Sequence record: PV292302.1
Origin: Escherichia phage Jgk1
Reading direction: 5' to 3' (one strand)
DNA length: 64,000 bases
In this document: positions 38,331-39,843 of the stretch, piece after piece
Layout: every line of letters starts with the position of its first letter
How positions within the stretch are numbered: position 1 is the first letter of the stretch
Notes under the pieces: model-generated
What the model was told of the DNA's origin: nothing
Databases searched by the model: none
The model's input: the letters and a program-made list of their open reading frames with translations, nothing else
Position numbers and translations under genes: made by a program

Positions 38331-38699
38331 ATGAAACTATTAGACTTACCAAATGAAATTCGCAACGCAGTTCTTCAAAGTGCTATGCGTGTAATGTCTG
38401 AGTCAACAGACATGGCTCACATGTTACAGAAAGCAGACTTGCTACTTAATCATGACTTCCCTGAACTATCTTCAAGATGCCTATCTGTAGAACAGGCCGA
38501 AGAACTCGTAGCCAAAGCCAAATGGATTGCTGAATTCACCAAGGTATTCGAGGTGTTCTGGGCTAACTCTGGGTATCCTCGTAAGCATTGGCGTAGTACT
38601 TTGAATGGTGAGTTATCCACTTGGATTTATGGTGATGAGTGGAAGAATTCAGATGCTGCATCAGCAGCTAAATCAAACATCTCCTACTGGGAAAATTAG
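38331..38699 (+). CDS. Hypothetical protein (122 aa)
   Basis: ATG with AGGAAAAA RBS; track ORF starts at upstream TTG 38295. Confidence 0.45.
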   Translation: MKLLDLPNEIRNAVLQSAMRVMSESTDMAHMLQKADLLLNHDFPELSSRCLSVEQAEELVAKAKWIAEFTKVFEVFWANSGYPRKHWRSTLNGELSTWIYGDEWKNSDAASAAKSNISYWEN

Positions 38700-38700
38700 T

Positions 38701-39117
38701 ATGGAACTCGAACAACAGATTAAAGAAGCTGGTGCTGATAAAGCTCCACGTATTACCCCTAACCACATCAAGAGTAAAGTACTTGGTACTTACTTCTTTA
38801 CTGGCCTGGATGGTGCAGCATCAGTGTTGCCTGATTTGGCAACCATTAAGAACCAGGAAGTACAGTCACTGTCCTTGCTGACATTCTGTGTACTGGTTCT
38901 GGAGAACGGTTTCACTGTTACTGGCGAGTCTGCCTGTGCATCCCCAGAAAACTTCAACGAAGAAATTGGACGTAAGATTGCCTACGAAAATGCAATCGAT
39001 AAAGTCTGGTTACTTGAAGGCTACCTCCTTAAGCAAAACCTGCATGAGAAAACTCAGAGCCGGGAAATGCTCAAGGGTTTCTTGGATGAAGGTGACTGTG
39101 CAGGGTGCAAACTCTAA
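38701..39117 (+). CDS. Hypothetical protein (138 aa)
   Basis: Internal ATG of track ORF 38605 immediately after upstream stop. Confidence 0.45.
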   Translation: MELEQQIKEAGADKAPRITPNHIKSKVLGTYFFTGLDGAASVLPDLATIKNQEVQSLSLLTFCVLVLENGFTVTGESACASPENFNEEIGRKIAYENAIDKVWLLEGYLLKQNLHEKTQSREMLKGFLDEGDCAGCKL

Positions 39118-39614
39118 TGGAAACTAAAATTCATTTCACCAACTACATTGGAACCAAGTGTGTAAATGGTTTCCCAATGAACAAGGTTGACTACTGCATA
39201 CTTCGTGGTTGGGATGTACCTGCTACCGAAGACCCATTAGAAGAAGGTTACTTAGTAGAGTACCCGGATTCTAAACCTAACCATGAGCAATTCCGTGGTT
39301 ACATTAGCTGGTCACCCAAGGCTGCATTCGAAGAAGCATACCGTGACGTAGTAAGCGGTTGTACTTTTGGTCATGCAGTGGAGCTTCTTAAGAAAGGATT
39401 CAAAGTAGCCCGTAAAGGCTGGAACGGTAAGGGTATGTATATCTCTTACGTTGCTGCCGAAGAATGGGCAAGTAGTGAACTGGAACGTCCCTGGTCAAAA
39501 GACCTCAAGCCCATCCCTTGGATTGGTATGAAGACTGTAGACGATACATATGTTCCGTGGTTAGCTTCTCAGTCAGATATTCTGGCAGTAGATTGGGTAT
39601 TAGCAGAGAGCTAG
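39105..39614 (+). CDS. Two-domain protein with C-terminal DUF2829-like (Tad2-like) domain
   Basis: C-terminal AVELLKKGFKVARKGWNGKGMYI...VPWLASQSDILAVDWV matches my recollection of the DUF2829 signature. Confidence 0.45.
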   Translation: MQTLMETKIHFTNYIGTKCVNGFPMNKVDYCILRGWDVPATEDPLEEGYLVEYPDSKPNHEQFRGYISWSPKAAFEEAYRDVVSGCTFGHAVELLKKGFKVARKGWNGKGMYISYVAAEEWASSELERPWSKDLKPIPWIGMKTVDDTYVPWLASQSDILAVDWVLAES

Positions 39615-39615
39615 C

Positions 39616-39843
39616 ATGGAAGAACTCATCAAGAAAGGCAGCATGGTAACCAAGCGCTTTGGTATCCTGGATATACCCAAGAAGTATCGACATAGGGTAA
39701 TTTTTGGATGTGACTGTCTTTACGTTGATGGCAGATTCTATCCATTAAAAGAGGATGCTCCACTCATATTGGTTAAACCTATGAGTTACAAAGGGGTTGT
39801 TCATATAAAGAACCTGAAAGCATACTCACTATTTGCTGTATAA
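39616..39843 (+). CDS. Hypothetical protein (75 aa)
   Basis: Last + strand ORF before convergent terminator. Confidence 0.45.
   Translation: MEELIKKGSMVTKRFGILDIPKKYRHRVIFGCDCLYVDGRFYPLKEDAPLILVKPMSYKGVVHIKNLKAYSLFAV

Follow-up and report, generated by a model that had tools for sequence, protein, structure and literature searches.

What occupies the interval between the tRNA genes and the vRNAP gene of Escherichia phage Jgk1, and what could it do for the phage? The window analysed here is a stretch of 64,000 nt (sequence record PV292302.1) from an enterobacterial N4-like phage (Schitoviridae, Enquatrovirinae-type), in which four open reading frames (ORFs), orfA to orfD, form a compact block ahead of the convergent vRNAP gene. 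The primase-to-vRNAP region of N4-like phages was recently described as an "anti-signaling hotspot" (Fedorova et al. 2026, bioRxiv 10.64898/2026.06.04.730250). Because two of its genes represent the sponge families Acb4 and Tad2, we assigned the block to this published anti-immunity hotspot, and we consider it likely that it forms the vRNAP-proximal end: an operon-like accessory set, the recognisable members of which sequester nucleotide immune signals. Both the hotspot and the Acb4 protein of phage N4 have been published; the block is a new gene combination at an already described kind of locus. The evidence consisted of gene structure, family membership in hidden Markov model (HMM) and PDB sequence searches, conservation of pocket residues, domain fusions and synteny.

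Gene structure and the two sponge-family genes

The block, its domains and its boundaries were located as follows (coordinates refer to the window; aa, amino acids).

38259-38288, + strand: upstream terminator-like hairpin, 11-bp stem with 6 GC pairs, then TTTTTATTT; 5' boundary of the block
38331-38699, + strand: orfA, 122 aa from ATG
38331-38474, + strand: N-terminal module of orfA (orfA_N), ~aa 1-48
38505-38696, + strand: C-terminal module of orfA (orfA_C), ~aa 59-122
38701-39117, + strand: orfB, 138 aa; Acb4 family
39117-39614, + strand: orfC, 165 aa; N-terminal module (Ndom) plus Tad2
39117-39350, + strand: Ndom, residues 1-78 of orfC; motif GYLVEYxD...GY[IV]SWSPKxxFExAY
39360-39614, + strand: Tad2 (DUF2829) domain, residues 82-165 of orfC; PF11195
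39616-39843, + strand: orfD, 75 aa
39847-39870, both strands: bidirectional terminator hairpin, 10-bp stem with 6 GC pairs, T-runs on both strands
39876-50219, - strand: vRNAP gene, 3447 aa; conserved 3' boundary of the hotspot

The stop-to-start packing of orfA to orfD suggests a single transcription unit with translational coupling: the junctions read TAG-T-ATG between orfA and orfB and TAG-C-ATG between orfC and orfD, while orfB and orfC overlap in TAATG. These are not chance ORFs, since homologues exist at the protein level for all four. The block starts 42 nt past the upstream hairpin (-19.9 kcal/mol, z = -5.17) and ends 3 nt short of the downstream hairpin (-18.2 and -18.1 kcal/mol, z = -4.2 and -4.4 for the two strands), a terminator that it has in common with the convergent vRNAP gene. 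Counterparts of the 39876-50219 ORF are annotated as vRNAP in N4, Mimir124 and Moo19. G7C and PhAPEC5 have a terminator annotated at the site homologous to the upstream hairpin, and in the window this structure, which resembles an intrinsic terminator, closes the upstream tRNA and non-coding RNA region. An initial annotation of this DNA had placed four + strand ORFs between two terminators, and its coordinates (38331-39843) proved exact. It had further described the upstream bracket as the terminator of the tRNA island. The terminator was found there, but the tRNAs are not adjacent to it: the detectable ones (Tyr, Asn, Pro, Gln, Ile) end at 36844, 1.4 kb before the hairpin, and a conserved non-coding stretch lies between. 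When 38200-39900 was used as the query, every record of the phage collection covered at most one third of it, with matching patches of 80-92% identity.

Judged from its sequence, orfB is a solid member of the Acb4 (anti-CBASS 4; CBASS, cyclic oligonucleotide-based anti-phage signalling system) family. It matched Pfam PF13876 (Phage_gp49_66) over profile positions 1-82 of 82 with 105 bits (cutoff 27, E = 2.9e-30), and a PDB sequence search recovered the SPO1 Acb4 structure 9E4W (E = 6.6e-5). The identity of orfB was 91% to an IME11-type homologue and 56% to N4 gp48, which is its positional orthologue and likewise matches PF13876. The contact set of SPO1 Acb4 used for comparison comprised K36, F48, E49, V56, Y57, F62, N63, I66, T70 and K81. 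In a phmmer alignment, F48, F62, N63 and I66 were kept in orfB as F71, F85, N86 and I89, which correspond to the stacking Phe and the adenine pocket; V56 was replaced by C79, and K36 and K81 fell beyond the aligned block. The Pfam name of PF13876, "N4 Gp49/phage Sf6 gene 66", mismatches the current N4 numbering, as the HMM finds gp48 and gp49 is the Ndom-Tad2 protein.

PF13876 is the anti-CBASS 4 family of tetrameric sponges for 3'3'-cGAMP and related signals, and the Acb4s of Gram-negative phages also bind cyclic di-AMP (cAA), with a shifted specificity (bioRxiv 10.1101/2024.12.30.630793). N4 gp48 binds 3'3'-c-di-AMP with a Kd of 111 nM and triggers PanDA (bioRxiv 10.64898/2026.08.10.743972); it is also necessary and sufficient to trigger the sponge-sensing system Panoptes (PMC12657230). 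From family membership and pocket conservation we infer the ligand binding, oligomeric state and anti-defence activity of the proteins of the window. The predicted cyclic-dinucleotide sponge orfB would be a tetramer in which pockets between the protomers bind CBASS cyclic dinucleotides, namely 3'3'-cGAMP and, like other Acb4s of Gram-negative phages, 3'3'-c-di-AMP, and sequestration of the signal would leave CBASS effectors silent.

The C-terminal part of orfC identifies it as the DUF2829-like protein that the initial annotation had noticed in the block. Residues 83-162 matched PF11195 with 82.9 bits (cutoff 25, E = 2.4e-23). DUF2829 is the Tad2 family of Thoeris anti-defence sponges (bioRxiv 10.1101/2023.05.01.538930), members of which sequester glycocyclic ADP-ribose (gcADPR; Li et al.; Yirmiya et al.). 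The designation "unknown function", given at first to all four ORFs, was accordingly wrong for orfB (Acb4) and orfC (Tad2) and was retained for orfA and orfD. The Tad2 part of orfC matched six solved entries: ModTad2 9EIB (E = 4e-17), 8V3E, AcrIIA7 9KZR, HgmTad2 8KBI, SptTad2 8WJD and SPO1 Tad2 8SME. Ten of the 12 gcADPR contacts of HgmTad2 (W21, N22, G23, M76, A78, T82, V84, W87, L88, S90, T92, D93) were identical in orfC (W102, N103, G104, M138, T144, V146, W148, L149, S151, D154), and the other two were substituted conservatively (A78 by T140, T92 by S153).

The HgmTad2/SptTad2 subtype possesses a second pocket, for cyclic di-GMP (cGG) or cGAMP, which is provided by a 35-41-residue insertion with R31, S47, F70 and N85 (Li et al.). 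In orfC, the insertion comprises ~24 residues (aa 111-134), with F70 replaced by P132, T71 by I133 and N85 by a gap, and the closest PDB matches were the short Tad2s of 88-89 aa (9EIB, 8V3E). Given this short insertion without the key residues, orfC was classed as a short-type Tad2 rather than a dual sponge of the HgmTad2 type, and it probably has no separate cGG/cGAMP pocket. We predict that the Tad2 domain acts as a sponge for gcADPR alone; as a tetramer, it would take up the Thoeris signal 1''-3'/1''-2' gcADPR.

Public annotations point to a different function for these two genes. Homologues in Mimir124 (PQ310662), Louie (PQ850616) and phi1_146050 are labelled "anti-CRISPR protein", and the PDB entries matched by orfC include some named AcrIIA7 or "Inhibitor of Type II CRISPR-Cas system" (9KZR, 8KBI), as would be expected if the Tad2- and Acb4-like genes encoded anti-CRISPR proteins of the AcrIIA7 lineage. 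We regard this as very unlikely. E. coli is not known to carry a type II-A CRISPR system, which counts against it. The inhibition of SpyCas9 by HgmTad2/AcrIIA7 was irreproducible and HgmTad2 is a gcADPR/cGG sponge (Li et al.), a result with which Yirmiya et al. agree; no experimental basis was found in the literature for calling the Acb4 homologue "acr". The "anti-CRISPR" label of Tad2 in GenBank is explained by its derivation from AcrIIA7. Pharokka-style annotation applies the name "anti-CRISPR protein" to Acb4- and Tad2-family genes in PQ310662, PQ850616 and PP889499.

The N-terminal module of orfC

Ndom was the best-conserved part of the block, with 92% identity to N4 gp49 compared with 56% for the Tad2 part. 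It had no Pfam match even at E <= 10 and no PDB match by sequence or by profile. The N-domain of Pectobacterium phage CB1 gp68, known as RyR Tad, was aligned to Ndom by hhalign over 65 columns with a probability of 97.4% (E = 9.7e-12), and BLASTP gave an E-value of 4e-6; by these alignments, Ndom is homologous to the RyR Tad N-domain. The module was present in 129 phage records, from phages of Escherichia, Vibrio, Klebsiella, Pseudomonas, Acinetobacter, Clostridium and Parabacteroides. A pattern scan located relatives at >570 IMG/VR loci, and a general homologous-protein search gave 6 matches.

For a census of the domains that accompany Ndom, ORFs were taken from 80 loci, and 41 non-redundant proteins were scanned against Pfam. 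Ndom was fused to Tad2 in 30 of these, to PF21825 (Sequestin) in eight and to Acb4 plus Tad2 in one; a few proteins were stand-alone (71-80 aa). Eighteen positions were invariant across the 41 proteins (G12, K14, M21, Y26, R30, W32, P35, E38, G44, V47, Y49, G61, Y62, S64, W65, P67, F71, Y75). Acb4 was adjoining or in the same ORF for 18 of the 62 distinct Ndom genes in IMG/VR, and the unrelated siphovirus MW202545 had the same gene order as the window, Acb4 followed by Ndom-Tad2. The fused sequences show Ndom joined to validated sponges of four folds, namely Tad2, Sequestin, Acb4 and RyR. One IMG/VR locus (L066, IMGVR_UViG_3300028829_003582, 3010-3864) encodes a single 284-aa protein that is a triple fusion of Ndom, Acb4 and Tad2.

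Two published families were considered as identities of Ndom and rejected. PF21825 is Sequestin, a sponge family for 3'-cyclic ADP-ribose (3'cADPR). Ndom had no PF21825 match at E <= 10, and in the Ndom-Sequestin fusions PF21825 is a separate C-terminal part. With the same HMM that finds the eight Ndom-fused proteins elsewhere, no protein of the window had a PF21825 match (E <= 10). Lockin was ruled out since it is reportedly missing from fully sequenced INPHARED phages, the kind of record in which Ndom was found 129 times, and since the PDB searches with Ndom gave no match.

The most likely role of Ndom is that of an oligomerisation or scaffold module. In the crystal of RyR Tad, the N-domain helps to hold the dimer together through a domain-swapped beta sheet of five strands, and in isolation the N-domain (1-86) had no anti-type I Thoeris activity (bioRxiv 10.64898/2026.06.04.730250). 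Ndom could instead be a fifth ligand-binding (sponge) module, making orfC two-headed like the Acb4-Tad2 and Acb4-Sequestin fusions. It occurs alone as well as fused to the four validated sponge folds, Sequestin was uncovered by the same guilt-by-fusion logic, and many of the invariant positions are aromatic or charged (Y26, R30, W32, E38, Y49, Y62, W65, F71, Y75). The conservation of Ndom far above that of its Tad2 partner also speaks for such a role, but it is compatible with an obligate oligomer interface as well. Since the RyR Tad N-domain is inactive alone and serves as a dimerisation element in the crystal, we consider a ligand-binding Ndom rather unlikely.

orfA, orfD and the variable gene content

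The orfA product is all-helical and consists of two modules. It had no match in Pfam, PHROGs, PADLOC, NCBIfam or PDB, and its family is tiny, with 13 representatives among 1.84 billion proteins in a profile search. The full-length homologues (12, at 42-97% identity) have strongly conserved termini, starting with MKLxxLPxEIRNAVLQSAMRVMSES and ending with AAKSNISYWEN. Each module was also found in other settings. orfA_N is fused to an RyR domain in P0028 and in a 160-aa "Ca2+ release channel domain" protein (PF02026) of Erwinia phage Fifi067, where no gene other than orfA_N::RyR separates the tRNA island from vRNAP. In Klebsiella phage Tribble, orfA_N is carried on another C-terminal part and adjoins the Acb4 gene. 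orfA_C (~64 residues) occurs as stand-alone ORFs (P0027, P0031, P0033) and as a 71-aa protein of Yersinia phage fHe-Yen9-03. Four matches of orfA_N to a 497-aa repeat protein (P0032) were judged to be a helix-motif coincidence. orfA adjoins Acb4 in all four genome types in which it was found (the window, L089, L092 and Tribble). Because its N-module has been swapped onto the RyR sponge domain in Erwinia phages and because it recurs beside Acb4, orfA is a better anti-defence candidate than orfD, by association only.

orfD, the last gene before the shared terminator, encodes a basic protein of 75 aa with four close homologues (64-84% identity). In the N4-like Kaypoctavirus phages of Klebsiella, relatives with 43-48% identity likewise come last ahead of vRNAP. 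The N-terminal ~37 residues resemble small ORFs in some siphoviruses, and residues 3-36 gave a weak PHROG match (phrog_29107). A gp66-like gene (76-84 aa, with a weak helix-turn-helix-like signal) that is unrelated to orfD holds the last position in Moo19, Gamaleyavirus phages and L089; with 14-18% identity to the last genes of Moo19, Mimir124 and L089, the assignment of orfD to this gene was ruled out. An AlphaFold2 model of orfD, built on a 5-sequence alignment, was unusable (pLDDT 38.8), and PADLOC and NCBIfam scans yielded nothing useful.

The gene content before vRNAP was compared across 14 related loci, and the following arrangements, each lying immediately before vRNAP, were found.

Window: orfA, Acb4, Ndom-Tad2, orfD
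N4 and ECBP1: Acb4, Ndom-Tad2
Mimir124 and IME11 (Gamaleyavirus set-up): Acb4, Ndom-Tad2, gp66-like
Moo19: Acb4, gp66-like
PW7 and L009 (Kaypoctavirus set-up): Acb4, Ndom-Tad2, two small ORFs, orfD-like
L089: orfA, 88-aa ORF, Acb4, gp66-like
L092: orfA, Acb4, Ndom-Tad2
Fifi067: orfA_N::RyR

The synteny comparison across N4-like genomes, which had been suggested in the initial annotation, thus revealed differing gene content at the position of the block. Mosaicism was also apparent within orfC, in which the N4-like Ndom (92%) is joined to a Tad2 part with 56% identity to N4 and 82-93% identity to PW7/L092. The comparison documents recombination breakpoints within individual sponge genes, which is consistent with sponge domains being swapped as separate modules. 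The variable content and the intragenic mosaicism point to an accessory, recombining counter-defence island and not to a core module.

An Acb4-like gene was present in most of the enterobacterial N4-like genomes examined, and the block is located within the replication-gene arm, which would be in line with a conserved core module for N4-type replication or transcription. Membership varies from gene to gene, however, with Tad2 absent from Moo19 and L089, orfA from N4 and Acb4 from Bas96. N4 tolerates knock-down of its Acb4, as Bas69 does nonsense mutations in acb4, and on Panoptes/PanDA hosts these changes are even of advantage to the phage (PMC12657230; bioRxiv 10.64898/2026.08.10.743972), and Ab09 without the equivalent hotspot genes is viable (bioRxiv 10.64898/2026.06.04.730250). 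A core function is therefore extremely improbable, and the block was not found to be a conserved one with a known core role. The proposal that variable anti-defence genes reside at this module boundary gained support from the Tad2 and Acb4 families, the sponge data for N4 gp48 and the published hotspot.

Several observations weigh against the block being an anti-signaling operon as a whole. A sigma-70 scan found no promoter for the block between 38288 and 38331. In orfB, the SPO1 Acb4 residues E49, Y57 and T70, which make guanine-edge and phosphate contacts, are replaced by T72, A80 and I93, and because of these replacements the ligand spectrum of orfB is not readable from its sequence. Type I Thoeris is not known to be a common system of E. 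coli. According to a statement cited in PMC13243611, one Tad2 clade binds His-ADP-ribose (His-ADPR) instead of gcADPR. The inactivity of the isolated RyR Tad N-domain belongs here as well, as does the finding that, apart from gene neighbourhood and a single shared module, nothing detectable ties orfA and orfD to any validated anti-defence family. These two would be co-transcribed accessory genes, and one or both may be unrelated passengers (host-takeover genes, regulators or "moron" genes), with anti-defence confined to orfB and orfC. On the other side, orfA lies beside Acb4 wherever it is found, Erwinia phages carry orfA_N joined to an RyR sponge domain at the same locus, and in Ab09 the unrecognisable sponge neighbours Bes1 and Bes2 proved to counter signalling defences (bioRxiv 10.64898/2026.06.04.730250). 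We lean slightly away from the passenger explanation, which nevertheless could well apply.

A more far-reaching version of the sponge interpretation is that the block encodes a battery of three to four anti-signalling activities, with a ligand-binding Ndom and/or orfA as a new helical sponge or inhibitor, and with orfA_N interchangeable with Ndom on RyR. We put this forward tentatively, as a speculative extension; if true, it would imply a modular toolkit of N-terminal adaptor domains and swappable signal-binding heads. With its sponge families, the block illustrates how an N4-like coliphage may be armed against signalling immunity of the CBASS and Thoeris types. From its presence, the phage is also predicted to be sensitive to the sponge-sensing decoys Panoptes and PanDA, which is relevant to host range and to the choice of therapy phages. 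Three short testable candidates within a validated hotspot emerge: Ndom, which is widespread and not in Pfam, orfA, a rare two-module family, and orfD.

The wider hotspot and known systems

Upstream of the block, the following features were identified between the primase gene and the block.

30401-32557: primase gene (PriCT_1), by Pfam domain
32614-33369: AAA_24/Sak4-like gene, by Pfam AAA_24
34205-34765, + strand: orthologue of N4 gp46 and Ab09 Bes1, RuvC-like; E = 3.4e-84 to N4 gp46, no Pfam match
34767-35273, + strand: acidic, low-complexity protein of 168 aa at the gp47/Bes2 position; no Pfam match
35467-35919, + strand: Cys-rich, zinc-ribbon-like protein of 150 aa
35903-36160, + strand: DUF7740 protein of 85 aa (PF24886, E = 1e-15)
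36845-38258, + strand: stretch of ~1.4 kb from the last detected tRNA to the terminator, with no ORF >85 aa
~36890-37170, + strand: candidate phage gene resembling transfer-messenger RNA (tmRNA), by sub-threshold Rfam matches

A gene at the position of the single-stranded DNA-binding protein (SSB) is also present upstream of the block. Broad evasion of signalling defences has been reported for Bes1. The 150-aa and 85-aa proteins are encoded just before the tRNAs, within the primase-vRNAP hotspot.

Patches of the non-coding stretch 36845-38258 recurred at 85-99% identity in 138 phage records, some of which annotate fragments of it as tRNA-Cys, tRNA-Thr or tRNA-Ile; in N4, an equivalent gap without annotation separates gp47 from gp48 (NC_008720 32112-33632). 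Besides the tmRNA-like element, the stretch probably contains degenerate or unusual tRNA-like genes. The tmRNA-like candidate scored 34.7 bits against the Rfam permuted tmRNA (gathering score 47, E = 1.8e-5) and also matched the tmRNA tag region and 3' end. It contains AUAAAU GCA AAC GAU GAU GUU GUU CUG AUG GCU GCU UAA, which would encode the SsrA-like tag ANDDVVLMAA followed by a stop. The tag frame and its stop codon are kept in six related N4-like phages, and the codons vary as in coding sequence (ANEEAYLMVA, ANNETYLMVA; synonymous GCT/GCA/GCC). A T-arm-like motif, GGTTCGAATCCCC, lies downstream of the tag at ~37140-37165. ARAGORN called no tmRNA at 36890-37170, and no description of the element was found in the literature. 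In related GenBank records, the counterpart is unannotated or given small ORFs.

The primase-vRNAP span of the window resembles the hotspot of Fedorova et al. in its interspersed SSB and RuvC-like Bes1 genes, in Tad2 and Acb4 and in small genes without known function. The case dissected there, Pseudomonas phage Ab09, carries an Acb4-Sequestin fusion together with Bes1 and Bes2, whereas the window has a separate Acb4, no Sequestin, and a Tad2 with Ndom. The families that Fedorova et al. name in their text include neither orfA nor orfD. The closest described arrangement is N4 gp48-gp49, in which an Acb4 gene and an Ndom-Tad2 gene with the same Pfam domains precede the convergent vRNAP gene (gp50). 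The window adds orfA upstream and orfD downstream. N4 gp49 shares 73% identity with orfC overall, but the Tad2 of the window is a different allelic type, and its Acb4 is of the IME11 type.

RyR Tad (CB1 gp68) shares with orfC the combination of an N-module with a sponge domain and the location in the same hotspot. Its C-terminal part is RyR Repeat12-like (PF02026), whereas that of orfC is Tad2 (PF11195). orfC thus lacks the C-terminal PF02026 domain with H129/W132, K147/H154 and K170/D171 that characterises RyR Tad, and CB1 gp68 adjoins the primase, whereas the block of the window adjoins vRNAP. Both SPO1 sponges are founding members of the families found here, and SPO1 too encodes both of them. 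orfB and SPO1 Acb4 (9E4W) agree in family and fold by sequence at low identity; orfB differs by a 16-residue N-terminal and a ~25-residue C-terminal extension and by other guanine-pocket residues. SPO1 Tad2 (8SME) matches orfC in family and fold by sequence, again with low identity, and orfC additionally carries Ndom.

Finally, multi-sponge proteins have been described in which Acb4 is fused to Tad2 (Pasteurella phage Pm86) or PF21825 to Acb4 (phage YH6) (Tal et al., bioRxiv 10.1101/2025.07.12.664507). The same sponge families, covering CBASS and Thoeris, are combined in the window and in these fusions. In the window, however, Acb4 and Tad2 are not parts of a single polypeptide but two genes that are translationally coupled through the TAATG overlap.

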